From assembly GCA_038064015.1 (NCBI GenBank), contig JBBTUB010000015.1, positions 7,093 through 71,092 on the forward strand: a stretch of 64,000 nucleotides of DNA. The letters are read 5' to 3'. Position numbers and translations under genes: made by a program. Shown here piece by piece: positions 3,136-46,678 of the stretch; the first letter of the stretch is position 1, and every line of letters starts with the position of its first letter. The notes under the pieces are model-generated. The model was not told where the DNA came from, did no database searches, and was given only the letters and a program-made list of their open reading frames with translations. This DNA comes from Patescibacteria group bacterium. Its GTDB lineage: Bacteria; Patescibacteriota; Minisyncoccia; 2-02-FULL-40-12; IGHO2-01-FULL-4-A.

Positions 3136-3144
3136 TCTAGCTCG

Positions 3145-5275: not shown

Positions 5276-5298
5276 TTGTGGTGTAGCCTGAAGATACT

Positions 5299-7980: not shown

Positions 7981-9807
7981 GTGCAAGCACAAGATATCTT
8001 ACAGGGCTTAAACCCCAAACAACAAGAAGCGGTAACGGCCATCGAGGGGCCGGTTTTAATCTTGGCTGGTGCGGGCTCGGGTAAAACGCGCGCGCTTACC
8101 CATCGCATGGCGTACTTGATCGCCTCCGGCGTCAGACCCGAAAATATCTTGGCAGTGACGTTTACCAATAAGGCCGCCGGGGAGATGAAAGAGCGCGTGG
8201 CAAAGCTCTGCGGCCACTCATCATTGCCGCTGGTCGGCACGTTTCATTCAGTTTGCTTGCGCATGCTCCGGCAAGATATCGAAAAACTTGGCTATAGCCG
8301 AAACTTTGTCATCTATGACAGTGACGATCAGCAATCGTTGATCAAAACCACGATGCTGGATGCGGGACTCGATATTAAGAAATGGAGCCCTAAAAGCATG
8401 CTGGGTGCCATCTCTGACCTCAAGAGCGAGCTCATCGGCCCTGAAGAATTCGAGCGCAAAGCCAACGGCTTTAAAGAAACTACGGTCGCCAGCGTCTATG
8501 GCGCGTACCAGGCCGCGCTCACCTATGCCAATGCGCTGGACTTTGATGATCTCATCATGACAACCGTCCGGCTTTTGCGAGAGCATCCCGACACGCTTGA
8601 TAAATACCAGGAACTTTTCAAATACCTCATGATCGATGAGTACCAGGACACCAATCACGCTCAGTATGCGTGGGCGAACTTGCTTGCCAAAAAATACCGC
8701 AACATCGCGGTCGTGGGGGATGATGCCCAGTCAATCTACGGGTGGCGCAAAGCCGATATCCGCAACATTCTTGATTTTGAAAAAGACTATCCTGACGCGA
8801 AGATCATCCTCCTTGAGCAAAACTACCGCTCCACGCAGACCATCCTGCACGCCGCCAATAGCATCATCGGCAACAACAAGAATCAGAAACAAAAAAACTT
8901 GTGGACCGAGAATCATGGCGGCAATCACATTACGATCAAAGAAGCTCATGATGTTGCTGAAGAGGGGGAATATGTCATCAGTAACCTCAAGCCCGGAGCC
9001 ACGATCTTGTATCGCACCCACGCACAATCCCGAGCCATTGAAGAGGCTCTGGTCCGCCACGGGATCGCGTACCACATTCTTGGCGGCACCAAATTCTACG
9101 AGCGACGCGAGATCAAAGACATCCTAGCATACCTGCGCCTCATGATAAACCCGGATGATACGGTAAGTTTTCGGCGTGTGTGTAATACACCGCCCCGTGG
9201 ATTGGGGCCGGTGGCAATCAAAAAGAAAACTGAGCCGTATCAAAAATTCGTCGCATTCTTGGAAGAACTGCGCGCAGAAATAAAAAAACCGCTCGCGGAA
9301 TTCGTCCGGCATGTCATTGCCAAAACAAAGTACGAAGCATATATCCGAGACCGCACCACCGAGGGTGAAGAGCGATGGGAAAATGTGAAAGAACTACTGA
9401 CCGCGGCCGCCGGAAAGGATCTCGAAGCATTCCTCGAAGAAGTCGCTTTGATTCAAGAAACCGACAAATTAAAGGGCGATCACGCCACGGTCAACCTCAT
9501 GACCCTGCATTCCGCCAAAGGCCTGGAGTTCCCGCTGGTTTTTATCATCGGTATGGAAGATGGGGTATTCCCGCACTCGCGAAGCCTTTTCGACCCTATC
9601 CAGCTCGAGGAAGAGCGGCGGCTGTGCTATGTCGGAGTTACCAGGGCACGGGAAGATCTCCATCTGATCTTTTGCCGCCAGCGGGCGCTGTATGGGAGCA
9701 CCCAGATCAACCCACCATCGCGATTTATCTTTGAAATCCCGGAAAGCCTCGTCAAATTCATTCCCGCCGAAGGAAGCGGAGGCCAAGACTATGTCATACG
9801 TTACTAA
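7981..9807 (+). CDS. ATP-dependent DNA helicase, UvrD/PcrA/Rep family (superfamily 1)
   Basis: GTG start. Walker A AGAGSGKTRALTHR. Motifs DEYQDTN, VVGDDAQSIYGWRKAD, LEQNYRST, TLHSAKGLEF, YVGVTRA. 608 aa is short for the family. Confidence 0.85.
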   Translation: MQAQDILQGLNPKQQEAVTAIEGPVLILAGAGSGKTRALTHRMAYLIASGVRPENILAVTFTNKAAGEMKERVAKLCGHSSLPLVGTFHSVCLRMLRQDIEKLGYSRNFVIYDSDDQQSLIKTTMLDAGLDIKKWSPKSMLGAISDLKSELIGPEEFERKANGFKETTVASVYGAYQAALTYANALDFDDLIMTTVRLLREHPDTLDKYQELFKYLMIDEYQDTNHAQYAWANLLAKKYRNIAVVGDDAQSIYGWRKADIRNILDFEKDYPDAKIILLEQNYRSTQTILHAANSIIGNNKNQKQKNLWTENHGGNHITIKEAHDVAEEGEYVISNLKPGATILYRTHAQSRAIEEALVRHGIAYHILGGTKFYERREIKDILAYLRLMINPDDTVSFRRVCNTPPRGLGPVAIKKKTEPYQKFVAFLEELRAEIKKPLAEFVRHVIAKTKYEAYIRDRTTEGEERWENVKELLTAAAGKDLEAFLEEVALIQETDKLKGDHATVNLMTLHSAKGLEFPLVFIIGMEDGVFPHSRSLFDPIQLEEERRLCYVGVTRAREDLHLIFCRQRALYGSTQINPPSRFIFEIPESLVKFIPAEGSGGQDYVIRY

Positions 9808-10546
9808 ACCTAAAAAATCTCTCGGCCAGCATTTTCTGGCCGACGCCAATATTCTAGAAAGCATCGCTCAAGCCGCAGAGATACAGCCCGGTGAGACCGT
9901 CATAGAAGTCGGGCCGGGAACGGGAACGCTTACCGATACGCTTCTGGCGGCGGGTGCGCATGTGATTGCCATTGAAAAAGACGCTGTATTAGCCGCTGAA
10001 CTCAAAGAAAAATATAAAAATAATAAAAACATAGAGATTATTCATGATGACATCTTGACTTGGAACATTGAAAATTCAATGAAAATTGAAAATTTAAAAT
10101 TTAAAATTGTCGGAAATATACCGTATTACTTAACAAGTCATTTAATCAGAACCGTCCTGCAAGAATGGCCACAACCAAAGCTCATCGTTTTCATGGTGCA
10201 AAAAGAAGTTGCGAAGCGCGCGACCGCAAAACCTCCCGAGATGAACATGCTTGCAGTTTTGATCCAATTTTATACTACTCCAACTATCATAAAGATTGTA
10301 AAAGCCGGCAGTTTTCATCCCAGGCCCAGGGTTGACTCGGCTATTATTCGGCTGGTGCCGAGGCATGAAGCGTGGAATAGGAAGCATGAAGCATTTTTCA
10401 AGATAGCCGGAGATGGTTTCAAACATCCCCGTAAAAAACTGTCCAGCAATCTCTCTCGCGAGCTTTTAGAAGCCGCGGGAATTGATCCAAATCGCCGCGC
10501 GGAAACACTCACCCTTGACGAGTGGAAAACTCTCGCAAAAATCTAG
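9791..10546 (+). CDS. rsmA: 16S rRNA (adenine1518/1519-N6)-dimethyltransferase RsmA/KsgA
   Basis: MSYVTKPKKSLGQHFL...VIEVGPGTGTLT...GNIPYYLTS. ATG at 9791 overlaps the helicase 3' end. Contains an AT-rich low-complexity insertion (NIENSMKIENLKFK). Confidence 0.85.
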   Translation: MSYVTKPKKSLGQHFLADANILESIAQAAEIQPGETVIEVGPGTGTLTDTLLAAGAHVIAIEKDAVLAAELKEKYKNNKNIEIIHDDILTWNIENSMKIENLKFKIVGNIPYYLTSHLIRTVLQEWPQPKLIVFMVQKEVAKRATAKPPEMNMLAVLIQFYTTPTIIKIVKAGSFHPRPRVDSAIIRLVPRHEAWNRKHEAFFKIAGDGFKHPRKKLSSNLSRELLEAAGIDPNRRAETLTLDEWKTLAKI

Positions 10547-10569
10547 CAATCATATGCTATACTTAGCGC

Positions 10570-11502
10570 ATGTCGCTGAAGCTTAAATTGCTGCTTTTTG
10601 CTGTAGTGCTTGGCGCACTCGGGCTTTCGTATCGTGCGATCTCCAAGGTCAGTCTTGGTCTTCCCGGAAGCCGTAATCTTGCCGCGAACGTCGTGCTCCC
10701 ACTGGATGCTCCTGATGCTGATCACGACGGCATCCCCGATGACGAGGAGGCACAGCATGACACCGATCCCTTCAAGGCCGATAGTGATGAGGATGGATAT
10801 CTTGACGGGGAAGAAGTGCTCTCCGGTTTTAGTCCGACGGAAAAAGACACGAAGAAAGAACAAGAAGAGAAGAAAAAAAAGGGGAACCTCACTCTGACCT
10901 ACCTCGAAAATATTATCGGCGGTGCGCTGGCAGGAGACTTGGATCCCAACAATCTCGAAACCTATACTGATAACTTGAATCTTACCGCGCTGGGGCTCCT
11001 TGATCGACTGCCTGATAAACTAACTCCTCCACCAACACGTCGCACGCTCACGGTCTTGGACAGCGATGATGCCGAAGAGCAAGAATACTTAGCGAACGCG
11101 GCTAAGTTTGTCAATTTTATTCCACCGCTCAATTTGTCATTTGAACGCATGGTCGCAAACACAAAGGACACTGGAGGATCGCAGGCGATCCAAATGTGGA
11201 AAATGCTGAGCACAATGTTTGACACGGCGGGAAGCAGGATTAATGCCCTGCCCGTCCCACAGGAATTCGTTGCTTGGCATGAAGAAGCGATAACGACGCT
11301 CGGGCGCGGCTCACGGCTCTACGATGCGCTTGGAAAGCTCAAAGAAGATCCACTCCTGGCCATGGCTTCACTTGATACGGTCCCGGATTTTATGGAACGC
11401 ATGATGAAGCTGTCCGATGACCTTAATGCCCTCATGATTGCCAAAAATCATTCTCTACGTGTCCACCCTCCAATAATTTTAAATGTCCCAAAGAAAAAAT
11501 AA
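10570..11502 (+). CDS. hypothetical secreted protein with acidic Ca-binding-like motifs (DADHDGIPDDEE / DSDEDGYLDGEE) and Lys/Glu-rich linker
   Basis: N-terminal signal/TM MSLKLKLLLFAVVLGALGLS. Thrombospondin-type-3-like DxDxDGxxDxxE motifs. First gene of the T4SS-like cluster. Confidence 0.45.
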   Translation: MSLKLKLLLFAVVLGALGLSYRAISKVSLGLPGSRNLAANVVLPLDAPDADHDGIPDDEEAQHDTDPFKADSDEDGYLDGEEVLSGFSPTEKDTKKEQEEKKKKGNLTLTYLENIIGGALAGDLDPNNLETYTDNLNLTALGLLDRLPDKLTPPPTRRTLTVLDSDDAEEQEYLANAAKFVNFIPPLNLSFERMVANTKDTGGSQAIQMWKMLSTMFDTAGSRINALPVPQEFVAWHEEAITTLGRGSRLYDALGKLKEDPLLAMASLDTVPDFMERMMKLSDDLNALMIAKNHSLRVHPPIILNVPKKK

Positions 11503-12604
11503 AATTATCATCCCTGCAATGATTGCCGCGATGCTCATCGGGCATGTAGCTGCAACCCATATCCCTACAGCAAAAGCAGTTTTTGGTATTGGGGATATCG
11601 TACTGGATACCAAGGCCTGGTTCGAAACCATCGATCAGAAGCTTGGGGCAAATGCCGCGAAGATTGCCTCGAAAGAAGTTGCCCGCATGCTCCGCACCCT
11701 CATCATCCACGCGATGGACGGCGGGCCGACATTTGTAACGAACTGGCGCAATCACTCGCGCAAGAGCCTGGATGGCGGAGGAACGATCGCTCGCAATCTG
11801 ATCGGAGAAGCGGCGTTTGGCGTCGATGGAGATCCGACGAGCGCCACCCTGTGCAATTTTTTCCGAGATTCAATCGGCAGTAAATTTAACGCGAAACCGG
11901 TTGATAAAGCTTTTGCGGATATCTCACGGGCATATCGCCTTGACGATGCGGGCACGTATAAACTTTTGACCAAGTGCACCTTGCCAACGACAATTTCAAT
12001 TGGCGGAGTACAGAAACCATTTGAGATTAAGAATTTTCAAGACTCTTTTGAGGGAGGATGGCCAGTCTTTGAAAAACTCCTTGAGCCCAACAATAACTAC
12101 TTTGGGGTATTGTCTATCACGGCCGCGGAGATCGGTAAGCAGCGCGAAGCACAAAAGCAATCGGCGCTCAATGAAGCCATTTCAGGTGGGGGATTTCTCT
12201 CGACCATTACCAAGAGTGGGCAAATCAAGAGTCCTGGAAAGCTCATTGGCGATACGGTAAGTAAACAGGTTGGGAGTATTTTCGATTGTCTCAATACCGT
12301 CATTTCATTTTCTTCCCTTGGGGTATGCATCACGGATTTCTCGATAATTGCCAACCAGGTGACTAATTTTCGCAACATCGCCGAATCCGCCGGGCTTCTG
12401 GATGATGAAAAAAGCGACGATGGAGACGCTGGCGATCCCGTGCCAACACCTGAAGTCGGGCCACCGGTCTGTGATAAAGCGTGTGGGGACGCTGCAGAAG
12501 CCACCTGCAACATGGATCCAAGCGTCAATAGCTCTATTCTCTACGAAGTATGCTTTAACCAAACATTTGATGAATGCAAGATAGAAATGTGCCAAGCGCA
12601 GTAA
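11483..12604 (+). CDS. hypothetical secreted protein, Cys-rich C-terminus
   Basis: 373 aa. N-terminal hydrophobic segment IIIPAMIAAMLIGHVAA. C-terminal CDKACGDAAEATCNMD...CFNQTFDECKIEMC. In T4SS-like cluster; may be a VirB5/VirB8-like accessory component, but there is no motif support. Confidence 0.4.
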   Translation: MSQRKNKIIIPAMIAAMLIGHVAATHIPTAKAVFGIGDIVLDTKAWFETIDQKLGANAAKIASKEVARMLRTLIIHAMDGGPTFVTNWRNHSRKSLDGGGTIARNLIGEAAFGVDGDPTSATLCNFFRDSIGSKFNAKPVDKAFADISRAYRLDDAGTYKLLTKCTLPTTISIGGVQKPFEIKNFQDSFEGGWPVFEKLLEPNNNYFGVLSITAAEIGKQREAQKQSALNEAISGGGFLSTITKSGQIKSPGKLIGDTVSKQVGSIFDCLNTVISFSSLGVCITDFSIIANQVTNFRNIAESAGLLDDEKSDDGDAGDPVPTPEVGPPVCDKACGDAAEATCNMDPSVNSSILYEVCFNQTFDECKIEMCQAQ

Positions 12605-12609
12605 TACTC

Positions 12610-15036
12610 ATGAGATCTAAGAGAATAAAAACAGCCATCGTTGCGCTACTCTTGCTCGCGATGCTCATCACACCGTTGGCGAGTGCGCAGGCGGGATCTT
12701 GGACTGATTATGTGACAGGAATATTAAAAGACGCTGCATGTGCAACGCCACTGGCAATTCTCAATCTAGAGGGGTGCGTTCTTCCGCCTCTTCTCAGCAT
12801 CGTAGGAACTATGGTTTCATGGTCAGCTGCTTTGCTGAATTGGCTTTTGGGGGCAAGCCAAGCTTTAGCGGCTCCCGATATCATCAGGTCATCGTGGGTA
12901 ATTTTTAGAGATTTCGTGAATATGTTTTTTATCCTCGCACTGATTATCATGGCATTTGGCACAATCTTCAATGTTAAAAACTATACGTTTAAAGAATTGT
13001 TTCCTCGATTTCTTTTCTCCGCACTGCTCATCAACTTTAGCTTAGAGATTGGCGTGTACGTACTGCGGGTTGCGAACGGTCTGGCTAGCGTATTTCTTGC
13101 CACCATCGGCGATGTCGGTGCCCGCCTTGCTGATGGACTCTTAATAACCAAAATAGCTTCACCGGAAGGCTTATCGGGAACTGCTGCGGCGGCACTAAAA
13201 GGAGTAGCTAGTGGGCCCGGGACTGCGATCACCATGCTTGCGTTCCTCGTATTCCTTATCATCATTTTGGGAACATTTTTGGCAGCGTCGATATTTATTC
13301 TTGCCCGCATTGTGGTCATTTGGTTTCTGCTTATCGTATCGCCGGTTGCGTGGTTTGGGTACACCTTACCGAGCCTACGGGCTGAGACGTGGAGTAAATG
13401 GTGGAAGGCATTTATCAGCTGGTCGTTTTTCCTCCCGACGTACTTATTTTTCATCATGTTCGCCTCTATTTTGTTGAGTGCGAAGAAGACTGTTGGCCTT
13501 ACCGTTGGAGGATATGATAATACTCTTGCAGCCGGGGACTATGCTAAGGCATTCTTCGAGGTTATCGGCCTCACCGATCTCCTCTTTTTTATTCTAGTCA
13601 TTATCGTACTCTTAGGAGGTATCGCAGCGTCTTTTAAAATCGGAGGGCTTGCCGCCAATGGCGCGGGGGCGGTCATGAGCTTTGCGCATGGGAGAGTGAA
13701 AGCGCTCCCAATTTTCCCCACAAAAGGAGCGGGTGGAAAGTGGGTAGGGAGAAGTATCGGCGATTGGGAGGGGGGCGCCAAGCAGCTTGGTTCTAGAATC
13801 CTGAAGTCCGGAATACCGCCAATCCTACCGGGAGTTGGAAAAATTCCCGGTATTCTTCGAGCGTTATGGACCGGGCAAGAGGGGCAAGAAGTGGCGGAGA
13901 AGGCAGTTGGCCAGAGCCTTCAGAGCACGCTTGGGTATGGCAACCTTGCTGAAGGAATGAAAGCTGAAAAAGCCGCGATTGATCATGCGCGTGAGATGCT
14001 TAAGCATGACCCGAAATTCACAGAAAAACTTCGGGACGCAAAATTAAAAGCAGACCTAGGAGAGGGAACTGATCTCATTGATGGGTTCAATAGAATGAAC
14101 TTTGAAACGATTGCCGAGTATCAGGAGCTTGCTGCAAAAGGCATGCTTTCTCCACAAGCATTGCGTGCCTTTGGCACAAAAATCGGTGATCGTAACTCAG
14201 ATGCCATGAAAGACGTGGGAGAGGCTCTTGCAAAATCAAGTTTCGGCGGATGGAAAGAAGAAGATATTTCTGAATTCTTAAAAGCGAAAGAAGATGGGCC
14301 TTACGACATCAAAGGCATGAAGGGCGCTAGAAAGAAAGGCCATGAATGGCTCATTTCTGACGATGGAAAACGAAGAATGCTTGGGCATGAATCTATAACC
14401 CTTGACGTGGTGAATCAAATGGCGAAGGATTATGGACCAGACTCAAACGAGATGCGTGGAGCTCTTCGCGAAATAGCCACAAAGCGAGCTGATCTTGCCG
14501 GAGAGTACAAAGCAATAGCGAAAGCAAAGGCCGAAGGAAGGGAATCCGCCACGGATGCTGAAGTCACAACTGCTACTCAGGAAGTTATTGAAGACAAAAC
14601 AGAACACGAATTAATGAGTATGAGTAAGATCGCTTTTGGGCAGGAGAGATTCATGCAAGCGGTATTAGGAAAACTTGAAAGCCTGCAATCAAAAGTCCCC
14701 ATGGGAGAATACGAAGATAAGTTCGATGCAGGTGCTATGGCAAAATACGTCCAAGGCATGCGGTCAGCGGGCGCGAGCGTCACAGATTTTCAAGAAAAAA
14801 TGCAGGATTTGACCAACGCACTCGGAAAAAATCGTGACGAACTTACGGTAAAAATACGTAACGCAGAAGGTAGAATTGAAGAAAGATCGATACATAACTA
14901 TAAGGAGGCCCTCGATATGGCCGCAAGCGAGAAGAAAGAGTGGGACATCAGGCGTCAAATTGCGGCTGATGAAAGACGTGATGATGCAAAGTTTGCCCGA
15001 GGGACTCGAGGACGCGGACCTAGAAGAACCACATGA
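12610..15036 (+). CDS. TrbL/VirB6-like polytopic inner-membrane protein with long hydrophilic coiled-coil C-terminal extension
   Basis: ATG at 12610, in frame with the 12574 ORF. Signal peptide, then at least 6 TM helices (aa ~60-360), then a ~440-aa Lys/Glu/Ala-rich tail. Architecture typical of TrbL/VirB6 family. Confidence 0.5.
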   Translation: MRSKRIKTAIVALLLLAMLITPLASAQAGSWTDYVTGILKDAACATPLAILNLEGCVLPPLLSIVGTMVSWSAALLNWLLGASQALAAPDIIRSSWVIFRDFVNMFFILALIIMAFGTIFNVKNYTFKELFPRFLFSALLINFSLEIGVYVLRVANGLASVFLATIGDVGARLADGLLITKIASPEGLSGTAAAALKGVASGPGTAITMLAFLVFLIIILGTFLAASIFILARIVVIWFLLIVSPVAWFGYTLPSLRAETWSKWWKAFISWSFFLPTYLFFIMFASILLSAKKTVGLTVGGYDNTLAAGDYAKAFFEVIGLTDLLFFILVIIVLLGGIAASFKIGGLAANGAGAVMSFAHGRVKALPIFPTKGAGGKWVGRSIGDWEGGAKQLGSRILKSGIPPILPGVGKIPGILRALWTGQEGQEVAEKAVGQSLQSTLGYGNLAEGMKAEKAAIDHAREMLKHDPKFTEKLRDAKLKADLGEGTDLIDGFNRMNFETIAEYQELAAKGMLSPQALRAFGTKIGDRNSDAMKDVGEALAKSSFGGWKEEDISEFLKAKEDGPYDIKGMKGARKKGHEWLISDDGKRRMLGHESITLDVVNQMAKDYGPDSNEMRGALREIATKRADLAGEYKAIAKAKAEGRESATDAEVTTATQEVIEDKTEHELMSMSKIAFGQERFMQAVLGKLESLQSKVPMGEYEDKFDAGAMAKYVQGMRSAGASVTDFQEKMQDLTNALGKNRDELTVKIRNAEGRIEERSIHNYKEALDMAASEKKEWDIRRQIAADERRDDAKFARGTRGRGPRRTT

Positions 15037-15500
15037 CATCCTACACCATCTACATCCCCGGAGAAGTTGATCTCCAAGAGATACTCCAAAGCCCATTGAT
15101 CTGGAAAGAATTTCAGCAACGCTGGGCGGTCGGCTCCCCGCGGCTCTCGGATTTGCTTTTCGGAGTCGACACAATGAACAAGATGATCGATATCAGCGTA
15201 GATTTCGAGCTGACCGATGAGCAGACCGCCAATGTATCTCGCGCGGTACGTGATATTGCGCTAGGCTATGTGTATATTGGCGATTTGGCCGCGGTGTTGC
15301 AAAAGCAACTTGGCATTGAGCAAAAGATTGCTTCGGAAATTGGTGGGAGCGCGTTGGAAATCCTCCGTCCCTGCATGGATGAAATCAAGAAAATCCAGCT
15401 CGCACGCTTTCGAAATCGTATCGAGCAAGCGGCGACAAAGCCGATAGATCAGCCGAAGCAGGAAAACACAAGCAATATTATTAACTTACGAAAACCATGA
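15033..15500 (+). CDS. hypothetical cytoplasmic protein (T4SS-like cluster)
   Basis: 155-aa ORF translationally coupled (ATGA overlap) to the VirB6-like gene. No recognisable motifs. Confidence 0.4.
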   Translation: MTSYTIYIPGEVDLQEILQSPLIWKEFQQRWAVGSPRLSDLLFGVDTMNKMIDISVDFELTDEQTANVSRAVRDIALGYVYIGDLAAVLQKQLGIEQKIASEIGGSALEILRPCMDEIKKIQLARFRNRIEQAATKPIDQPKQENTSNIINLRKP

Positions 15501-15805
15501 GATTCCACGTCCCACAATTCATCGAAAAAGAAAACAAAATCATCGGGCCGTTGACACTCCGGCAATTCCTTTGGCTATTGATTGGCGGAGGGCTGTTCTT
15601 GATCGTAAAGATTTTTCTTTCGGGAATGCCTTTGATAATAGCCCTGGTGGTGATCGCCGCACTTTCCCTGGCCATGGCATATGCTAGAATCAATGATGTA
15701 TCCCTGCCGCGCTACACGCTGATGGCATTTAACTTTCTGATCATGGGAAAGCGCTATACCTACACGAAAGAAGAAAACGAAAATATTACATGGCAAAAAA
15801 AATAG
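15497..15805 (+). CDS. VirB3/PrgI-like small two-TM membrane protein
   Basis: 102 aa with two hydrophobic helices (LWLLIGGGLFLIVKIFL / LIIALVVIAALSLAMAY). Lies immediately upstream of and overlapping the VirB4 gene, as in Gram-positive-type T4SS (PrgI/TcpE position). Confidence 0.4.
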   Translation: MRFHVPQFIEKENKIIGPLTLRQFLWLLIGGGLFLIVKIFLSGMPLIIALVVIAALSLAMAYARINDVSLPRYTLMAFNFLIMGKRYTYTKEENENITWQKK

Positions 15806-16425
15806 GCTCTAACACCAAGCAATTTGTAGACATCGCCGATGTGCGAGGCTCATTAGTCCTGCTCAAAGACGGCTCACTTCGCTCAATTATTTCCGTCGAG
15901 TCGGTGAACTTTGATCTCAAGTCTCCTGACGAGCAGACCGCGATCCTGCAGGGATTCCAGAGCTTGGTCAACGCGCTCGATTTCCCGCTCCAGATCGTGG
16001 TCACGTCACGCACGCTCGATCTCAGTAATTATTTAGAGCTCCTGGAAGTTACCCAAACAAAACTTACCAACGAGTTGCTCAAAACCCAACTCACCGAATA
16101 CGCAAAGTTCATCCAAGACCTCACGAAGCTTGCCAATGTCATGGAAAAGAAATTCTATGTCGTCGTACCATATCATGCCATCGAGGCGGTTAAGAATAAC
16201 ACCGGTTTTTTGGGAAAATTAAAAGACCTCTTCTCCGCCACTCGCCATGCTGCGGCGCTCACGGAAGAAAACGAGAAACAATATGGCAAGCAGGTTGAGC
16301 AGCGGGTTGCTGTCGTGTTGTCGGGGCTTTCGCCGCTTGGCGTGAAAACAAAGCTTCTCGAACACGACGAGCTCTTGCAAATCTTCCAGCGCCTCTATAA
16401 CCCGGGACAAGTTCTCCCCACATAA
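15790..16425 (+). CDS. VirB4-family T4SS ATPase, N-terminal domain fragment (split gene)
   Basis: IADVRGSLVLLKDGSLRSIISVESVNFDLKSPDEQTAILQGFQSLVNAL resembles the N-terminal region of Gram-positive VirB4/TcpF/PrgJ-like proteins. Ends TAA at 16423-16425, 5 nt before the ATPase ORF, which is in another frame. Confidence 0.55.
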   Translation: MAKKIGSNTKQFVDIADVRGSLVLLKDGSLRSIISVESVNFDLKSPDEQTAILQGFQSLVNALDFPLQIVVTSRTLDLSNYLELLEVTQTKLTNELLKTQLTEYAKFIQDLTKLANVMEKKFYVVVPYHAIEAVKNNTGFLGKLKDLFSATRHAAALTEENEKQYGKQVEQRVAVVLSGLSPLGVKTKLLEHDELLQIFQRLYNPGQVLPT

Positions 16426-16430
16426 ACCCA

Positions 16431-18179
16431 ATGGATACCACTCCCCAAGAAAAAACAGTTGATGAAATCCTTGCTCCCTCGGCGGTCTCGCTGGGAGCAA
16501 ACGACATGCAAATCGGCGAAAAGTACGTACGGACGATTTTTGTCGCCACCTATCCACGCTATCTCAATACCGGATGGTTTGCGCCCATTATCAACTTAGA
16601 CAAGGAATTTGACGTTGCTTTTTTCATCCACCCGGAAAATTCCGCCGAGGTACTTAAAAAACTTCGCGACCAGCTTGGCCGTCTTGAAGCGGAAGCTATG
16701 GAAGAACAAGCCGCGGGAAAAGTGCGCAACCCGGCACTCCAGACCGGGATTAACGACATTGAGGAACTGCGGGATGCGCTCCAGCAGGGAACGGAGAAAT
16801 TTTATCAGGTCGGCTTGTATATCACGCTGTACGGCAAGACGCAGCAAGACCTGAATGAGCTTGAAAGCTCAATCCGTGGGACCCTCGAAGCCCAGCTTAT
16901 TTACACGAAGCCGGCAACATTCCGCATGAAGGAAGGCTTTGTCTCAACCTTGCCGTTGGGATTGGACAAACTGAACATCCAAACGTCTCTTAATACCGAG
17001 CCGCTTTCTTCGATGTTTCCGTTTGTTTCGTATGATTTATCGCTGGATCGGGGCATTTTGTACGGGATCAACTTGCACAACAATTCTCTCGTGCTGTTTG
17101 ACCGCTTTTCGCTTGAGAATGCCAACACGATCATCCTCGGCAAATCAGGAGGAGGGAAAAGCTACACGATAAAACTTGAGATCCTACGAAGCCTGATGTT
17201 TGGCACCCAGGTGTTCGTGATCGACCCGGAGAACGAATACAAATACCTCTCGGACATGGTGGGGGGGACTTCCGTGCGCATCTCAATCTCCTCTGAAGAT
17301 CACCTCAACCCCTTTGATCTCCCCAAGCCTCGCGCCGATGAGACGCCGGCCGATGTGCTGCGCTCGCACATCGTTGACTTGGGAGGATTCTTTAAGCTTC
17401 TCATGGGAACTATCACTCCTCAAGAAGATGGGATTCTCGACGAGGCGATCCGGCAAACGTATGCTTCACGCGACATCACCGCTACTTCTGATTTCTCGAA
17501 AATCGAACCTCCGCTGATGTCGGATTTCCAAAGCGTCCTCTCCGGCATGGAGGGAACCGAGTCACTGTTGCTGCGAATCAAAAAATATACCGAGGGAAGT
17601 TTTTCGGGCTTTCTGAATAACCCCACCAATGTACGCCTCGATAACCAATTAATAGTCTTTTCCATCCGGGATATGGAAGATGAGCTGAAGCCGGTCGCCA
17701 TGTATCTGGTGCTGAATTTTATCTGGAGCCAGGTTCGCTCGGAAATACGCCAGCGGTTGCTGATCGTTGACGAAGCGTGGCTCATCATGCGCTACGAGGC
17801 GGGAGGACTTTTTCTTTTCAATATTGCCAAACGCGCGCGGAAATACTACCTTGGGCTTACGGCGGTCTCCCAGGACATCCCGGACTTTATGAGTTCGCAA
17901 TACGGCAAGCCGATTATTACCAACTCATCGCTCCAGATCCTCCTGAAACAGTCACCGACAACGATTGATCTGGTAAAAGACACGTTCCACCTCACGGATG
18001 CTGAGAAATTCTTCTTGCTGGAGGCGCAGGTGGGACATGGGCTTTTCTTCGCTGGAAACAGCCATGTGGCAATTCGGATCATTTCCTCCTATGCTGAAGA
18101 TCAGATCATTACGTCCGACCCGCGCCAAATCCTCGATATCGAGGCGGCAAAGCGCGAGCTGGCGGAACAAGCTTCATAA
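16431..18179 (+). CDS. VirB4-family T4SS ATPase, C-terminal ATPase domain (split gene)
   Basis: Walker A IILGKSGGGKS, Walker B LLIVDEAW, arginine finger region, VFVIDPENEY. YVRTIFVATYPRYLNTGWF motif typical of VirB4. Confidence 0.8.
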   Translation: MDTTPQEKTVDEILAPSAVSLGANDMQIGEKYVRTIFVATYPRYLNTGWFAPIINLDKEFDVAFFIHPENSAEVLKKLRDQLGRLEAEAMEEQAAGKVRNPALQTGINDIEELRDALQQGTEKFYQVGLYITLYGKTQQDLNELESSIRGTLEAQLIYTKPATFRMKEGFVSTLPLGLDKLNIQTSLNTEPLSSMFPFVSYDLSLDRGILYGINLHNNSLVLFDRFSLENANTIILGKSGGGKSYTIKLEILRSLMFGTQVFVIDPENEYKYLSDMVGGTSVRISISSEDHLNPFDLPKPRADETPADVLRSHIVDLGGFFKLLMGTITPQEDGILDEAIRQTYASRDITATSDFSKIEPPLMSDFQSVLSGMEGTESLLLRIKKYTEGSFSGFLNNPTNVRLDNQLIVFSIRDMEDELKPVAMYLVLNFIWSQVRSEIRQRLLIVDEAWLIMRYEAGGLFLFNIAKRARKYYLGLTAVSQDIPDFMSSQYGKPIITNSSLQILLKQSPTTIDLVKDTFHLTDAEKFFLLEAQVGHGLFFAGNSHVAIRIISSYAEDQIITSDPRQILDIEAAKRELAEQAS

Positions 18180-18182
18180 TCC

Positions 18183-18719
18183 ATGGATGCACAAGACAAC
18201 ATCTACTCATTCCAACTTGCGCAAGAGCGGCGGCGGGCGCAGCTTCAGGGCGCCGAAGACCAGGAACAAAAACGCCAAGAACAAGCTGATCAGAAGCTTT
18301 TTAGGAGCGTCTTGAAAATTTCGATTATTTTGGACGCGATTGATATCGTATCACTCGGCACGATCGGCTGGTTTATTGGATGTATTGGAGATCTTTACCT
18401 CTACAAAAAAACTGGCCAATCAAAAGCCGGGCGCGCGCAAAAGAAAAAAATCATCATCGCGATCGTGGGAGAGAAAATTCCGATCGTAAATATTTTGCCC
18501 TTGAGGACGATTATGGCAATATTCTCAAACCCCAAAATTATGGCAAAAATTGCTCAGCGACTGCAGACTGCCAGTAAAATTCTCAACGTCGCCGCTAAAA
18601 TCCCGACACCGATCGCCCCAGAGCTCAAAGCCGCATCAAAAGTCGTAAATCTAGCAAATAGGAGAACTCAGATGGGGGCTCGAATGCTTAATACAAATGT
18701 AACTAATAAAGCGGCATGA
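18183..18719 (+). CDS. hypothetical membrane protein (T4SS-like cluster)
   Basis: 178 aa. Gln/Glu-rich N-terminus, one or two TM helices (ISIILDAIDIVSLGTIGWFIGCIG). Lys-rich. Confidence 0.4.
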   Translation: MDAQDNIYSFQLAQERRRAQLQGAEDQEQKRQEQADQKLFRSVLKISIILDAIDIVSLGTIGWFIGCIGDLYLYKKTGQSKAGRAQKKKIIIAIVGEKIPIVNILPLRTIMAIFSNPKIMAKIAQRLQTASKILNVAAKIPTPIAPELKAASKVVNLANRRTQMGARMLNTNVTNKAA

Positions 18720-19783
18720 AAAACATCATGAAATTCATGCTCTTGCTCTTCGTGGTTGCCGGGGTTTCCTTTGGCGCTTCGCTTGGGTTCAGTCAATGGC
18801 GCGACGCGAGGGTCACTGACAACCTGGACGCCAATGTGCTGCGCAGATTCGAAGGCCGAGAACCTCAACCAACGGAAAAAGGCTCGATCAAGCTGACAAC
18901 CGAGGAGGCGAGTTTTTTCCACGTCATACCCAACAAACAAGAAATTCGCTACTATCATGCCCGGACGGGCCAGATCAAATCTCTATCGTCGGCCAGGACA
19001 GCAAAGCCCGCCCTACTCGCCACGATCAAGCCGCGCGCGAGCGATCTCACGTGGTCACCTGATGGCACGGAAATCATCGCATCGTATGGTACCGAGCGAA
19101 TCTATGTGAACGTGACGGCCAGCACGCAGACCAAGCTCGACGCAAATATCCTCAATCCAAAATTCGGACCGGTATCTGATTCGGTTGCCTATCTTTATTT
19201 CGATAAAAAAACAGAGGCCGGGGTGATCAGCATCGCGGACTCGCAGTTTAAGACCTTTAAGAATCTTCTCAAGACACGCCTGAGCACCTGGGAGATCCAG
19301 TGGGCCGATGAGCGCAAACTTTCACTTCTTGCCGCGCCGCCCTCCTCGCGCCTACAATCCCTCTACCTCCTCACCATCGATCAGGAAGGGCTGGATATAC
19401 TCATCGACTCAAAGACTGACATCGAAACGAATTGGTCGCCCGACGGGCAACACCTTCTGTACTCCCGGAAAACGCAAAACGGGATCGAGCTATTCTTACT
19501 TGATCTTGCCACGCGAGCCGAAAAGCCACTCGAAATATCAAGTATGGCATCGAAATGCGGATGGACCTCTGATAGTAGCACGCTGTATTGCGGAGTCCCG
19601 GAAAAAGACTCTGACGATGCTATACTGAAAATTTCGATGACGGGTACTCAAGAAAAAATCTTTGCCCCCGCCGATGCGGGATTTGTAGATGCACGAAATA
19701 TCGTATACATTCCGATCCAAAACGCATTGCTTTTCAAGAACTTCAAAGACGGGCGGCTCTATCTTTTATCGCTGGCCAAATAA
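18716..19783 (+). CDS. secreted TolB-like beta-propeller protein (PD40/WD40-like repeats)
   Basis: Signal peptide MKNIMKFMLLLFVVAGVSFGASLG. Repeated WSPDGTEII / WSPDGQHLLYS motifs typical of TolB/PD40 beta-propellers. Confidence 0.55.
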   Translation: MKNIMKFMLLLFVVAGVSFGASLGFSQWRDARVTDNLDANVLRRFEGREPQPTEKGSIKLTTEEASFFHVIPNKQEIRYYHARTGQIKSLSSARTAKPALLATIKPRASDLTWSPDGTEIIASYGTERIYVNVTASTQTKLDANILNPKFGPVSDSVAYLYFDKKTEAGVISIADSQFKTFKNLLKTRLSTWEIQWADERKLSLLAAPPSSRLQSLYLLTIDQEGLDILIDSKTDIETNWSPDGQHLLYSRKTQNGIELFLLDLATRAEKPLEISSMASKCGWTSDSSTLYCGVPEKDSDDAILKISMTGTQEKIFAPADAGFVDARNIVYIPIQNALLFKNFKDGRLYLLSLAK

Positions 19784-20978
19784 GGCGCGCCATCAAAAGC
19801 GTGACCAACAATTCGGTAGCGACCGTGTTCCAAGCGGCGGCAGTCGCGCCATATTGGGGGATGAATAGCAGATTTAAGAGGACGTTGATCGCGGCACCGC
19901 ACCCATAGATCCATATTCCTTTCCGTTGAAGATCAAGCGCGATGATCGCGCTCCCAAAAAGATTTCCAAAGAAAATAATACCGATCGAAATGCTTAAGAT
20001 TCGCAATAACGGCACCGCCGCGCTAAATGCCGCATCTCCGATCAGAGCAATGATGGGATTCGCAAAAACAACCAACGCAACCACGGTGAGGGTCGCACCC
20101 GCGCCAAGCCTTCGCGCAGCGCGAAAAAAAACCGGTCGGAATTCGCTTGAACGAAAAGCGAATTTTGATAAAAGCGGCATGATGAGTCCCACATACATCG
20201 CGGGGAAAAATATCACGACTTCCAGCACTTTATAGGCCACGGAGTACATCCCGACTTCAGCCTCACTGCTCATCACCGAGAGCATGACGGTATCGATTTT
20301 AAAATAGACCAGGGTAAACACTAACGATGCCGCGATAGGAAACGCCGAGCGCAACATGCCCTTCCAATACACGACATCGATCTTGAGATGAAATGGTATG
20401 ATGTGGCGCGCGGCGACCACCGTGATGACCATGTGAATTACTTCCGCCACCACGTTAATCCATAGGACGGGGATTAACGCCACCATACCGTACTTCAAGA
20501 GCACCAGGAGCCCCCCAAGCTGAATCCCGCGCGTTATAAAGTCTCCTACGGCTACCACGCCCAGACGCAAATGCTTTTGAAATACTCCCATGAGCACCTG
20601 CGTGATCGACTGCGCCGCGGTCGCCAGAATGACGATCAATATCCCCATCGTTACGACGCTTCCGTACCCAACCAATGGCAGGAGCGCCACGGCGACCGCA
20701 GTAGTTACTCCGATCAATACCAAGCGAAGCGTGACAAGCAGGCCCGTGATGCGCGCTTCATCGGCTCCTTCACGAGAAATTTCACGCGTCAACAGTGTGC
20801 CGATGCCCATATCAGCGGCGATAGAGACAAAAAAGAGATACGCGTAGATCGTACTGTATTGGCCAAACCCCTCCGGCCCCAGTTGCCTCGTTAGAATCGC
20901 GAGGATGATTAACCCGAGCGTGTTGACCGCCGCGCGCGAAAAAAAGGCAATGCCAAAATTGCGCGAGATACTGCTCAT
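19743..20978 (-). CDS. MOP-superfamily flippase (MurJ/Wzx-like polysaccharide or lipid II flippase)
   Basis: 411 aa, about 12 TM helices. N-terminal FFSRAAVNTLGLIILAILTRQLGPEGFGQYSTIYAYLFFV typical of polysaccharide biosynthesis/MurJ family. Confidence 0.65.
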   Translation of the reverse strand: MSSISRNFGIAFFSRAAVNTLGLIILAILTRQLGPEGFGQYSTIYAYLFFVSIAADMGIGTLLTREISREGADEARITGLLVTLRLVLIGVTTAVAVALLPLVGYGSVVTMGILIVILATAAQSITQVLMGVFQKHLRLGVVAVGDFITRGIQLGGLLVLLKYGMVALIPVLWINVVAEVIHMVITVVAARHIIPFHLKIDVVYWKGMLRSAFPIAASLVFTLVYFKIDTVMLSVMSSEAEVGMYSVAYKVLEVVIFFPAMYVGLIMPLLSKFAFRSSEFRPVFFRAARRLGAGATLTVVALVVFANPIIALIGDAAFSAAVPLLRILSISIGIIFFGNLFGSAIIALDLQRKGIWIYGCGAAINVLLNLLFIPQYGATAAAWNTVATELLVTLLMARLIWPAIKDRAARL

Positions 20979-21436
20979 CAGGAAGACGCCAGCTTGATGA
21001 TAATTCTCCGATTCGGTTCTACGCCGATACTTTCTGTCTGGAGCGAGGTATACGAAGCGAGCTTCGTATGAAGTAGCTTACGCTCGTGGGCGCTCATGGG
21101 AGCGAGCGCTTCAGATACCCCCTTGGCGAGCACTCGCTGTGCGGCTTCGTCGGCAAGCTCAAAAAGTTTGATAATATGAGATTTTCGATAATCATCGACA
21201 TCCAGAAAAAAATCCGGCATGGCATGCTCAGCCATCCGGCGCGCACTGAGAAGCCGCACGATATGCTCAAGCGCGTAGAGGTGTTCGCCGCGAGCTCCGA
21301 TCAATGAAGTGAGGGGCTGCGAGGAAGCGATGCGAATCATCGGGAATAGGTCTTCAGTCCACGAACAGCCCGCCTCAAAGCCCGCTCGGGCAAGGATTTC
21401 CTCGGTCGTGGAAAGGATGATTTGTCGCGGATCCAT
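20978..21436 (-). CDS. jag: Jag/KhpB-like R3H RNA-binding protein
   Basis: Located immediately downstream of yidC. KH/R3H-like region (RIIIKLASS, ...ERKLLHTKLASY). Confidence 0.65.
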   Translation of the reverse strand: MDPRQIILSTTEEILARAGFEAGCSWTEDLFPMIRIASSQPLTSLIGARGEHLYALEHIVRLLSARRMAEHAMPDFFLDVDDYRKSHIIKLFELADEAAQRVLAKGVSEALAPMSAHERKLLHTKLASYTSLQTESIGVEPNRRIIIKLASS

Positions 21437-21441
21437 GGGGA

Positions 21442-22143
21442 TTATTGATATCTGCGCCGGATATACACCAGCTCAAAGATAGCAAACGCCGTCGTGGTAA
21501 TCCAGTAGAGGACGAGTCCCGCCGGCAAGCTCCACGAGATGACGACAATCATCACCGGAAAGATATACATCATCTGTTTCGTCATCTTCGCCGCGGCATC
21601 GTTGACCCCCGCGACCGGAGTCTTCTGCAGGCGTGTCGTCAAATATGACTGCACCCCTTGAAGGACACCGGCAATGATCGCCATAACGGGATACTTCTGG
21701 GCGAGGTCGAGAAAACCCAATCCGATATTCCCCAAGCTCCCCGGGTTATGAACGAAGGAATAGAGGCCGGAAAGATTTTCCGGTTTAACGCCATTAATGA
21801 AAACTCTATATAATGCCCAGATCACGGGAAGCTGGATTAATATCGGAAGGCATCCACTGAGCGGGTTCACCTTGTGCTCCTTCCAGAGCGCCATTTGAGC
21901 CTGCGCCAGTCCCTGCTTATCGCCCTTGTGCTTTACTTGCAGTCCCTGAATCTTTGGCTGGATCTCCGCCATCGCTTTTTGAGATCGCAGCGCTTTGAGC
22001 GAGAGGGGAATAAACACGATCCTGATGAGAATCGTGAGGAGGATGATCGCAACTCCAAGGTCATGTCCGGGAATGGTATTATAAATCCCGACCAAAAGGT
22101 TAAACAGGGGGCGATAGAGGATTTCATTGAAAAGAAACATCAT
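21442..22143 (-). CDS. yidC: membrane protein insertase YidC (short Gram-positive/Oxa1 type)
   Basis: LYRPLFNLLVGIYNTIPGHDLGVAIILLTILIRIVFIPLS...MAEIQPKIQGLQ...NPLSGCLPILIQLPVIWALYRV. Confidence 0.85.
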   Translation of the reverse strand: MMFLFNEILYRPLFNLLVGIYNTIPGHDLGVAIILLTILIRIVFIPLSLKALRSQKAMAEIQPKIQGLQVKHKGDKQGLAQAQMALWKEHKVNPLSGCLPILIQLPVIWALYRVFINGVKPENLSGLYSFVHNPGSLGNIGLGFLDLAQKYPVMAIIAGVLQGVQSYLTTRLQKTPVAGVNDAAAKMTKQMMYIFPVMIVVISWSLPAGLVLYWITTTAFAIFELVYIRRRYQ

Positions 22144-22337
22144 GGGTGGCAGGTAAGTAATCGTCGGACACTCGCAACCCCTCCGTCAACCAGTCCAAGG
22201 CGCCGGAGTGAGCGGATCGAGTACTCAGAACACGAAAGTTCATAGCGACAACCGCCGGTTGGACCAAAGGCGGTATGGAGCAGCGGAGAAATCATAGCTT
22301 GATAGGCTCGGATGAGAAAAATAATAACTTGACTCAT
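22140..22337 (-). CDS. yidD: membrane protein insertion efficiency factor YidD
   Basis: [20 protein letters not shown]...GGCRYELSCSEYSIRSLRRLGLVDGGVASVRRLLTCHP is the YidD signature. Confidence 0.8.
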   Translation of the reverse strand: MSQVIIFLIRAYQAMISPLLHTAFGPTGGCRYELSCSEYSIRSLRRLGLVDGGVASVRRLLTCHP

Positions 22338-22567
22338 AAATTTTTTGATGTGTGCTGCAGATCCTCCTTGATTTCTTGAAACCTTTTACCTACGATAGAA
22401 GGCAGGGCGATGATCGCGATGCCGGGCCCTGTGGAGAATGTGTGGATCGTGCGAATTGCTTCTCGAAGTCGCCGCTTGATGAGATTTCGCTGGACCGCTT
22501 TGGCCGCCACTTTCTTGGAAACCACAACTCGAAAGCTCTTTGATGGCTTGATAACTACGTACTTCAC
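22334..22567 (-). CDS. rnpA: ribonuclease P protein component
   Basis: ...[20 protein letters not shown]... (RNR motif region). Position between rpmH and yidD. Start may be a non-ATG codon upstream. Confidence 0.7.
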
Positions 22568-22701
22568 GTAGACAAGCGCTTCCGCCCCTTGGCGCGTCTT
22601 CGCGAGAGAACTTTCTTCCCATTCTTCGTGAGCATGCGCTTTCGGAATCCGTGAGTAGCTTTACGCTTTTTCTTTTTGGGCCGATAGAGTGTTATTTTCA
22701 T
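22564..22701 (-). CDS. rpmH: 50S ribosomal protein L34
   Basis: Reverse-strand translation [48 protein letters not shown] at 22701..22699, TGA stop at 22566..22564. Confidence 0.85.
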
Positions 22702-22810
22702 ATATGTAGAGTATCACTTTTTTAAGTAATAGTCAAAAATAGCAGCCTATGAACATGTTATCAACTTCATCATCGTTCCCAGTCTTCCTCCCTTCACCTA
22801 TACTACCTTT

Positions 22811-24181
22811 ATGACGAACGAGGAGTTATGGAAAATCGTACTGACGGAAATGGAGCTCTCCTTATCGCGGGCAAACTTCACGACATGGTTCAAAGGAACG
22901 AATCTCCTGGCCAACGCGAACGGCTGCATGATGGTGAGCGTCCCCAATGGATTTATCAAGGAGTGGCTTGAGAACAAGTTCAATAAACAGATCTTTCACA
23001 TCATCAGGCAACATCATCCCGAAGTCCGGGAAATTAAGTACACCATTGGCATGTCGCGCCCCGAAGCGGTTTTGAGTAAGCGTGACTTCGTCCAGTTCAT
23101 CCCGGAACAACTCGTAAAAGAAGCCGCTCCGGAAGACGTTAACGCGGTGACGAACTTCAACAAACGCTATACATTTGATTCATTCGTCGTTGGGCCAAAC
23201 AACGAACTCGCCCATGCCGCAAGCCTCGCGGTCGCTAAAAAGCCGGGGCATCTCTATAATCCCTTGTTTTTGTATGGCGGCGTAGGGCTTGGCAAAACCC
23301 ACCTGCTCCAGGCAACCGGGAATTATATCGCGCACACGATGCCGGAGAAGAAAATGTGCTACATTTCCACCGAGCGGCTCGTAGCTCAAATCGTAGAGTC
23401 ATTTAAGAATAGGACTACTGAGCACTTGAAGCAGAAATTCCACGGACTTGATGTGTTGGTCGTGGATGATATCCAGTTTCTTTCGGGGAAAACCACGACC
23501 CAGGATATTTTCTTTTCGATATTCAATGAGCTTTACGCGAAAAATCGGCAGATTATTCTTTCTTCAGACCGGCCACCAAGCACGATTGCCGCACTCGAAG
23601 AGCGGCTCCGCTCGCGTTTTGAGGGCGGCATGATCGCCGATATCGGCATCCCGGAATATGAGACCCGTCTTGCGATTCTCGCCATGAAGGCAAAGGAAAA
23701 GAATTTTGAGATTGATGCTGAGTCACTTGACTATATTGCTTCAAATATCCAGAAAAATATCCGAGAACTCGAAGGCGCGCTCAACCGCATCATCGCATTT
23801 GGGCAGATTTACAACAAAACCCCAGCACTCAAAGAAATCAAGCAGCTCCTCGGCACCTACGTGAATGCCCCGTATCGAAAGCCCACCTCTCAATCAGTCA
23901 TCAAGTCCGTAGCGGACTTTTATCGCATCGCCCAAACCGACCTGGTAAAGCGCAGCCGCCGCAAGGAAGTGGTGCGTCCACGCCAAATCGCCATGTTTTT
24001 ACTCCGTGAAGAAGTGAAGTACTCATTCCCGGAAATCGGCGCAAGGCTGGGCGGGCGCGATCATTCAACGGTGATCCATGCATGCACTAAGATCAAAGAA
24101 GAAGAGCTTAATAATGACACTACCCGGCAAGAATTAAATCTGATCAAAGAGCGTATTTATCAAAATTTTGAAACTGCGTGA
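22811..24181 (+). CDS. dnaA: chromosomal replication initiator protein DnaA
   Basis: Walker A GGVGLGKTHLLQA, Walker B VLVVDDIQFL, sensor motifs, C-terminal DNA-binding helix (RKEVVRPRQIAMFLLREEVKYSFPEIG). TGA stop. Confidence 0.95.
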   Translation: MTNEELWKIVLTEMELSLSRANFTTWFKGTNLLANANGCMMVSVPNGFIKEWLENKFNKQIFHIIRQHHPEVREIKYTIGMSRPEAVLSKRDFVQFIPEQLVKEAAPEDVNAVTNFNKRYTFDSFVVGPNNELAHAASLAVAKKPGHLYNPLFLYGGVGLGKTHLLQATGNYIAHTMPEKKMCYISTERLVAQIVESFKNRTTEHLKQKFHGLDVLVVDDIQFLSGKTTTQDIFFSIFNELYAKNRQIILSSDRPPSTIAALEERLRSRFEGGMIADIGIPEYETRLAILAMKAKEKNFEIDAESLDYIASNIQKNIRELEGALNRIIAFGQIYNKTPALKEIKQLLGTYVNAPYRKPTSQSVIKSVADFYRIAQTDLVKRSRRKEVVRPRQIAMFLLREEVKYSFPEIGARLGGRDHSTVIHACTKIKEEELNNDTTRQELNLIKERIYQNFETA

Positions 24182-24318
24182 AATGTTAATAACTACTATC
24201 CACATCACTATCAACACGAGCACCCACAGTAATTTATGTTAATAATAACTAAGTAACTCTCACTAATTCATCCTTATCCACTATCTTATCCCTTCTTATA
24301 GTAGTATATAATATATCT
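24182..24318. promoter_or_regulatory. candidate oriC: AT-rich dnaA-dnaN spacer with DnaA boxes and putative DUE
   Basis: tATCCACA at 24197-24204, TTATCCACT at 24274-24282, and an AT-rich run tatagtagtatataatatatct at 24296-24318. Conserved rpmH-rnpA<->dnaA-dnaN arrangement. Confidence 0.6.
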
Positions 24319-40650: not shown

Positions 40651-40659
40651 ATACGGCTA

Positions 40660-46677: not shown

Positions 46678-46678
46678 T

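Follow-up and report, generated by a model that had tools for sequence, protein, structure and literature searches.

We find that the operon at positions 10570–19783 of a 64,000-nucleotide stretch of contig JBBTUB010000015.1 (hereafter the window), taken from a Patescibacteria metagenome-assembled genome, very probably encodes a chromosomal type IV secretion system (T4SS) of the Patescibacteria (candidate phyla radiation, CPR) that stems from the monoderm MPF_FATA conjugation machinery and has been repurposed non-conjugatively as a pilus- or conduit-building, contact-dependent machine for host interaction. The contig originates from Hainich groundwater (0.1 µm samples). The operon is an ordinary member of a system that has already been described and not a new machine; it adds a clean and complete example from a Parcubacteria-like groundwater lineage, with nothing categorically new. 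It comprises nine open reading frames (ORFs) on the + strand, called O1 to O9 from its first gene to its last (Table 1), all of which are intact and have a GC content (0.47–0.50) equal to that of the surrounding window. An initial annotation, made from the sequence alone, had proposed nine co-directional genes here, and all of its coordinates proved exact. Its description of these genes as mostly translationally coupled is fair, neighbouring ORFs overlapping by 4–20 nt or being separated by 3–5 nt: the junctions from O1 to O9 measure −20, +5, −4, −4, −16, +5, +3, and −4 nt, and the O2/O3 junction becomes −31 nt if the alternative start of O3 is used.

The core of the operon runs in the order VirB6-like protein (O3), small soluble protein (O4), PrgI/VirB3-like protein (O5), TrsD-like protein (O6), and VirB4 (O7). 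The VirB4 ATPase named in the initial annotation was readily recovered: O7 matches the NCBIfam model NF045971 (conju_CD1110) with an E-value of 3.4e-102 and 343 bits against a cutoff of 325, covering model positions 183–733 of 752, contains the Pfam domains P-loop_TraG and CagE_TrbE_VirB, and carries intact Walker A (GKSGGGKS) and Walker B (LLIVDE) motifs. PrgJ of pCF10, which bears the same PGAP family name (CD1110), aligns with O7 over PrgJ residues 223–772 at 25% identity (E 3e-40). Since these alignments start only at model position 183 and PrgJ residue 223, the usual N-terminal ~220 residues are absent from O7. O5, predicted from the outset to be a PrgI/VirB3-like protein with two transmembrane (TM) segments, matches Pfam PrgI (E 1.4e-8, 35.5 bits vs. 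a cutoff of 27) and forms a hydrophobic hairpin.

The initial annotation gave eight descriptions for the nine genes; these descriptions hold, and the gene left undescribed is O6. This ORF is similar to the TrsD/TraD family (E 8e-7, below the curated cutoff) and to positions 102–246 of the 894-position NCBIfam model VirB4_plasma (NF045975), which represents a fused VirB3-VirB4 (E 2.6e-11, also sub-cutoff). O5, O6, and O7 cover positions 13–103, 102–246, and 291–892 of this model, respectively; because they map to successive stretches, the three genes are colinear with a single VirB3-VirB4 polypeptide. In every related locus inspected, the TrsD-like protein and VirB4 are encoded by separate ORFs, with spacers or overlaps that vary from locus to locus. 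The split is therefore ancestral and does not reflect a frameshift, and on the same grounds we rejected the interpretation of O6 and O7 as a frameshifted VirB4 pseudogene. The identification of O6 as a putative TrsD, which would correspond to the N-terminal part of VirB4 as a protein of its own, rests on sub-threshold hidden Markov model (HMM) matches, its conserved position, and the literature.

O3 consists of a signal-like N-terminus, a multi-helix membrane domain (aa ~50–350), and a hydrophilic C-terminal tail of ~450 aa. The polytopic, VirB6-like character assigned to it initially stood up, whereas the coiled coil proposed for its tail did not: in the structure prediction, the tail is modelled confidently as a helical-repeat bundle and not as a simple coiled coil. 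Structure comparison places the predicted fold nearest to DotA and TrwI/VirB6, and O3 combines a polytopic architecture (at least five TM helices) and a VirB6 fold with a gene position beside VirB3 and VirB4. Sequence identity to TrwI (R388; 7o3v/8rtd) and DotA (Legionella Dot/Icm; 9ngy) is only 11–12%, and O3 differs from both in its extra ~450-aa cytoplasmic helical-repeat domain, in its monoderm envelope, and in having no Pfam TrbL match. A weak hhalign similarity links O3 to PrgH of pCF10 (119 columns, E 0.018). Taken from the structural model, O3 would be an extended VirB6-like platform protein with a predicted cytoplasmic helical-repeat domain. PF19590 is precomputed on ~10 O3 homologues.

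VirB2-like pilins (PF18895/PF04956) are present as an array which does not adjoin virB4. At the far end of the window, one gene encodes a product matching Pfam T4SS_pilin (PF18895; E 5.8e-7), and three more TrbC/T4SS_pilin genes (147, 91, and 147 aa) follow on the source contig past the window end. Together they form a four-gene array ~43 kb from virB4, of which only the first gene lies inside the window. In other Paceibacterota loci, a similar gene for a ~300-aa pilin-domain protein is found within the cluster, flanked by virB4 and the propeller gene, which ties the pilins to the system; the array here probably provides the pilus subunits of the same T4SS.

The operon is embedded in a housekeeping context. 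Upstream lie tRNA-Ala, uvrD/pcrA, and the directly adjoining ksgA, and downstream a convergent polysaccharide flippase is followed by jag, yidC, yidD, and rnpA (− strand) and by dnaA and dnaN, with all six genes from jag to dnaN 0–5 kb downstream. No relaxase, coupling protein (T4SS-DNA_transf, TraG, FtsK-like), or integrase was found in any scanned ORF of the window, which agrees with the initial annotation for relaxase and VirD4, and the same holds for relaxase, type IV coupling protein (T4CP), and integrase among the called genes ~10 kb beyond both window ends, where the initial annotation had recommended looking for them. The genes beyond the 5′ end comprise LAGLIDADG ORFs, a SIMPL-domain gene, and genes for SpoU methylase, RNase HII, GAPDH, YafQ toxin, and transketolase; those beyond the 3′ end include the three further pilin genes. 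An integrative conjugative element (ICE) or its decaying remnant, with relaxase, T4CP, and integrase just outside the window, could be suspected from the fact that the VirB4, PrgI, and TrsD families stem from Gram-positive conjugative elements. However, the called genes in the flanks are housekeeping genes or pilins, the neighbours of the block are conserved across species at only 55–65% VirB4 identity, and the ORFs and ATPase motifs are intact in a block that shows no GC deviation. Att-like direct repeats are likewise missing around the block, where only two short chance repeats were detected, and no tRNA stands at its borders, the nearest one being 2.6 kb upstream, beyond uvrD-ksgA. An ICE origin of this kind is thus largely refuted and in our estimation highly improbable. 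The alternative offered initially, a chromosomal effector, uptake, or host-interaction machine in place of a classic conjugative element, is supported by this context beside dnaA and by its conservation across many CPR species.

We assessed this conservation by a VirB4 scan over one genome per GTDB species, from which 80 loci were kept. The scan matched at least 576 stretches; VirB4 is 55–83% identical in the loci kept, almost all of which are labelled as Patescibacteria lineages. By pairwise similarity, which is not a tree, O7 is 55–83% identical to the VirB4s of hundreds of CPR genomes and 25% identical to PrgJ, with CD1110 as the best curated model, which is consistent with a place in the Patescibacteria VirB4 clade. 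The order uvrD-ksgA-[block]-jag-yidC-dnaA is repeated in most of the kept loci, with the same housekeeping neighbours even where VirB4 is only 55–65% identical, and the block order itself is also conserved in most of them, as the synteny comparison suggested in the initial annotation now shows. Occupancy was counted after one profile iteration in loci with enough flank (n = 50 for O1–O6, n = 62 for O8 and O9). Upstream of virB4, homologues were detected in 33/50 loci for O1, 39/50 for O2, 39/50 for O3, 20/50 for O4, 44/50 for PrgI, and 47/50 for TrsD; downstream, the counts are 17/62 for O8 and 52/62 for O9. In a Moranbacteria-like minority the arrangement differs: PrgI-TrsD-VirB4 is preceded by a pilin gene and further ORFs and followed by the gene of a ComM-like Mg-chelatase ATPase and by ksgA/uvrD, and neither O1 nor O9 has a homologue there.

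The same region shows features related to replication. The cumulative GC skew has its minimum at 22–24 kb, and the dnaA-dnaN spacer contains two 8/9 matches to the DnaA box (24196 and 24274). Within 7981–24320, the + strand carries uvrD, ksgA, and the operon, with rnpA-yidD-yidC-jag (−) and dnaA-dnaN (+) to their right. If the origin is located at dnaA-dnaN, the operon is transcribed head-on to replication, an orientation that is the same in most related loci.

The system to which the operon belongs has been characterised in two studies that the initial annotation overlooked (PMC12102498 and PMC10633639), as it also overlooked the pilins 43 kb away. In the survey of Quinonero-Coronel et al. 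(2025, PMC12102498), VirB4 was found in 2,417 of 3,035 Patescibacteria genomes, its sequences grouping monophyletically inside MPF_FATA. Among the components detected, TrsD was the commonest, and PrgI/VirB3, VirB6, and arrays of VirB2-like pilins occurred as well; there were hardly any relaxases, T4CPs were usually distant from virB4, and the T4SS of Paceibacteria and Microgenomatia were located near dnaA, dnaN, ksgA, rnpA, and rpmH. Epibiotic growth of Southlakia epibionticum requires SEML1_0006-0019 (Wang et al. 2023, PMC10633639). The gene order there is VirB6-like protein with an ARM-repeat tail, SEML1_0012, SEML1_0011, PrgI, SEML1_0009, VirB4 (K12063), a large protein, and a lysozyme, complemented by a pilin array (PMC10633639); SEML1_0009 has been identified as a TrsD homologue, and the Southlakia T4CP homologue is not essential (PMC12102498). 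Few machines have been shown to be indispensable to the epibiotic way of life of these ultrasmall bacteria, and the Patescibacteria T4SS is one of them. We found no later functional work on it in the literature.

The operon shares with the described Patescibacteria systems the presence of a VirB4, a PrgI/VirB3 homologue near virB4, a separate TrsD homologue adjoining virB4 (at the sub-cutoff scores given above), VirB2-like pilins in arrays, and a VirB6 extended by a helical-repeat tail, as well as the lack of a relaxase and of an adjacent T4CP, the dnaA/dnaN/ksgA/rnpA position, and the core gene order. It departs from the clade in that the pilin array is 43 kb away from virB4 and not in the cluster, and from Southlakia in that no VirB1-like lysozyme or peptidase gene was detected after virB4; these differences are minor. 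With the MPF_FATA systems (PrgH-PrgI-PrgJ-PrgK-PrgL and PcfC/PcfG of pCF10; Trs of pGO1, with TrsD) it has in common a CD1110-family VirB4, a PrgI-family VirB3, the VirB6-VirB3-VirB4 order, and a monoderm design without VirB7/9/10. In contrast to these systems, the block contains no T4CP, relaxase, or LPXTG adhesins, no PrgK-like hydrolase or PrgL-like VirB8 was detected in it at the sequence level, the N-terminal ~220 residues of VirB4 are replaced by a separate TrsD-like protein, and the locus is chromosomal and vertically inherited. VirB2-like pilins, absent from Gram-positive systems, are present here.

In the VirB systems of R388 and Agrobacterium, VirB3 anchors the VirB4 hexamer, VirB4 extracts VirB2 pilins, and VirB6 serves as assembly platform or channel. 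As a plausible mechanism built by analogy with these systems, a VirB3-anchored VirB4 hexamer, with its missing N-terminal domain supplied by TrsD, would power the extraction of VirB2-like pilins from the membrane. With VirB6 as their platform, the extracted pilins would then build up a surface filament or conduit, whose wall-spanning or host-contact part might consist of the exported accessory proteins; because of their position and export signals, we place O1, O2, O8, and O9 in such an extracytoplasmic portion. The machine would mediate the contact-dependent exchange with a host cell that reduced-genome epibionts need, and it would not mobilise DNA by conjugation.

The direction of this exchange can be read in two ways, which we rate about equally and neither of which conflicts with the structural model; import and effector delivery are also the hypotheses for function put forward in a 2025 T4SS review and a 2024 perspective (PMC11665869). 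On the first, the system would work mainly in reverse, taking up host DNA, nucleotides, or other macromolecules, as ComB of H. pylori or archaeal Ced do, and so feeding a bacterium unable to make them itself. The absence of a relaxase or coupling protein nearby is in keeping with such an importer, ComB uptake being a T4SS without a T4CP, and import has been favoured as a hypothesis on the ground that Southlakia can dispense with comEC but not with the T4SS (PMC12102498, PMC11665869). Like ComB, Bordetella Ptl, Brucella VirB, and Ced, the machine encoded here appears VirB4-driven and non-conjugative and has no co-encoded dedicated coupling protein; ComB, Ptl, and Brucella VirB differ from it in being diderm systems with VirB7–10 outer-membrane cores. 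O7 shows a weak similarity to CedB, but its 41.9 bits compare with a cutoff of 700, and the value for CedD (14.2 vs. 600) is lower still. Ced-specific models were unmatched and no Ced-specific component was detected, nor does the block contain a DNA-binding or nuclease domain. We consider an importer rather unlikely in itself.

On the second reading, proteins would be injected into or released onto the host in order to manipulate or lyse it, as has been speculated for Saccharibacteria (PMC10633639, PMC11665869). Several proteins of the operon carry Sec signals, and long members of the O2 family bear adhesin or glycan-binding domains, both of which speak for effector export. Yet a coupling protein that could recruit cytoplasmic substrates is not encoded nearby, the exported proteins of the operon occupy fixed, conserved positions, like structural parts rather than variable effectors, and Pfam and NCBIfam detect no toxin or enzyme domain in them. 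An effector exporter is a doubtful proposition to much the same degree as import.

Several observations weigh against our interpretation of the operon as a repurposed Patescibacteria T4SS. The putative TrsD assignment of O6 lies far under the NCBIfam cutoffs (29 bits vs. 200), O6 has no BLAST match to the N-terminus of PrgJ, and the TrsD-family profile has no match among PDB sequences; hhalign set O6 residues 19–66 on PrgJ residues 48–95, which is the expected region, in a non-significant alignment. For O3, the Foldseek E-values to TrwI are weak (0.2–0.7), O3 itself is without a Pfam TrbL match, and PF04610 (TrbL) matches only 4 of 57 O3 homologues, all below threshold (best 24.9 bits vs. a cutoff of 25.9). 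Of the two family assignments that the initial annotation had singled out for HMM searches, that of O7 to VirB4 was thus obtained and that of O3 to TrbL/VirB6 was not. Pfam, NCBIfam, and hhalign against PrgK and PrgL reveal, at the sequence level, no VirB1-like hydrolase or VirB8-like protein in the block, where divergent analogues may have escaped recognition, and the pilins, 43 kb from VirB4, have no physical link to this ATPase. The absence of a T4CP beside virB4 is the norm in the phylum, a point missed by the initial annotation, and does not show that the genome is without one, and a T4CP could be encoded elsewhere in the genome. Finally, essentiality has been established for a single species of Saccharimonadia, and a corresponding function in the present lineage would hold by analogy.

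Besides the core, the operon contains five conserved, unannotated accessory genes (O1, O2, O4, O8, and O9), which are a modest new point of this analysis. Consistent with the acidic Ca-binding-like motifs and the secretion noted initially, O1 has an N-terminal hydrophobic segment and matches the TSP3-type repeat TSP3_bac (PF18884; E 2.8e-6), with D49, D51, D53, E60, and D79 invariant in its family, whose profile in turn matches the Ca-binding repeat of the biofilm surface protein 7c7r (1.9e-5). O2, rightly described as secreted and Cys-rich, has a hydrophobic, signal-like N-terminus and 10 Cys; in one NCBI record its start is placed at 11519 (361 aa). Signal or anchor segments at the N-termini of O1, O2, and O9 were identified from hydropathy and composition. 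NCBI names, taken from one member each of the 90%-identity clusters that hold VirB4 and O2, are "ATP-binding protein" and "hypothetical protein", respectively.

The O2 family is large: searched against 1.84 billion proteins, its profile recovers 5,883 cluster representatives (50% identity) at E ≤ 1e-3, and 2,613 of these reach E ≤ 1e-30. It is characterised by the motifs WINxGFxGxPxF, GGW, PQNNxYG, GxGFLS, and TPG and by the invariant residues P82, C124, C165, N204, and P251. Among the listed representatives beginning with Met, 134 of 144 have a hydrophobic N-terminus, and a small number of long members carry additional Ig-like, fn3, or discoidin domains; both properties fit an extracellular role. 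The family has no Pfam match and its conserved core no PDB sequence match, profiles of 28 and 94 sequences yielding only coiled-coil noise against PDB in the variable C-terminus, and the AlphaFold2 model of O2 was unusable (mean pLDDT 49.6, from an 18-sequence alignment). As judged from its sequences, O2 appears to represent a large "dark" family of secreted proteins.

Neither O4 nor O8 has a relative in Pfam, NCBIfam, or PDB, and both were negative against a VirB2-pilin alignment. O4 contains no hydrophobic segment, as befits the small cytoplasmic protein proposed at first, and shows a conserved, LP-containing helical region at its N-terminus, which a variable linker joins to a short motif conserved at the C-terminus. 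O8, with two hydrophobic segments, is indeed a small membrane protein. The secreted TolB-like β-propeller proposed for O9 was also recovered, the family profile matching the TolB propellers of PDB (2.7e-9) with a similarity limited to the propeller blades; a C281/C292 pair is near-invariant. We rejected O9 as a TolB orthologue (TIGR02800, 33.3 bits vs. a cutoff of 343, with only 69 model positions covered), and O9 shares the TolB propeller fold class without being a TolB. When the O1, O2, O3, O4, O8, and O9 families were aligned by hhalign with 14 Prg/Pcf proteins of pCF10, nothing significant was found other than the weak similarity of O3 to PrgH already described.

The suspicion that the accessory proteins are lineage-specific is borne out, and none of these components (the TSP3-repeat protein, the O2 family, O4, O8, and the TolB-like propeller) is mentioned in the survey (PMC12102498). 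Tentatively, and with slightly less than an even chance in our estimation, the five could be genuine subunits, i.e., a Patescibacteria-specific extracellular or wall-spanning module that contacts the host and replaces VirB1, VirB8, and adhesin functions. If this is true, O2 would be the founding member of a large structural family (~5,900 representatives) with no Pfam or PDB relative. The value of the operon lies in a fixed parts list for its lineage, including the five accessory genes and the distant pilin array, as candidates for modelling and genetics.

Table 1 Genes of the T4SS operon and first gene of the pilin array, with positions in the window.
Feature	Position	Strand	Length (aa)	Description
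O1	10570–11502	+	310	Exported or membrane-anchored; TSP3-type Ca-binding acidic repeat; opens the block
O2	11483–12604	+	373	Secreted, 10 Cys; large uncharacterised family
O3	12610–15036	+	808	Extended VirB6-like polytopic membrane protein (predicted); alternative start 12574
O4	15033–15500	+	155	Soluble; between the VirB6-like and VirB3-like genes
O5	15497–15805	+	102	PrgI/VirB3-like; two-segment hydrophobic hairpin
O6	15790–16425	+	211	TrsD-like; putative free-standing homologue of the VirB4 N-terminal region
O7	16431–18179	+	582	VirB4 ATPase without its own N-terminal ~220 residues
O8	18183–18719	+	178	Small membrane protein; conserved E..P..N..P motif
O9	18716–19783	+	355	Exported or anchored TolB-like β-propeller; closes the block
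Pilin gene	63087–63983	+	298	N-terminal T4SS_pilin domain and Cys-rich C-terminal domain; start of the array

Elsewhere in the window, a PilB-type T2SSE ATPase with an MshEN domain (32809–34452, −) is a type IV pilus component and thus belongs to a separate surface machine, and a sortase gene adjoins that of a 1,036-aa surface protein with DUF11, PKD, and bMG10 domains (40000–43770, −), likely a sortase-anchored adhesin pair. A tRNA-rich patch of lower GC content (0.44–0.48) at 46600–49600 (−) contains an HTH/transposase-like ORF (46679–47350) and a LAGLIDADG-domain ORF (48898–49548). The YebC/TACO1 ORF at 29176–30106 (−) is only 160 aa long, matches no more than the N-terminal domain and the beginning of the one after it, and overlaps the RuvC ORF; its shortness may reflect a truncation, a frameshift, or a start-codon artefact. 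At 1561–6888, three ORFs of 524–540 aa without a Pfam match, one with a precomputed DUF6311, flank a uracil-DNA glycosylase gene, and at 54291–55821 a CAP/cysteine-rich secretory domain protein (+) is encoded beside a collagen triple-helix repeat protein (−).

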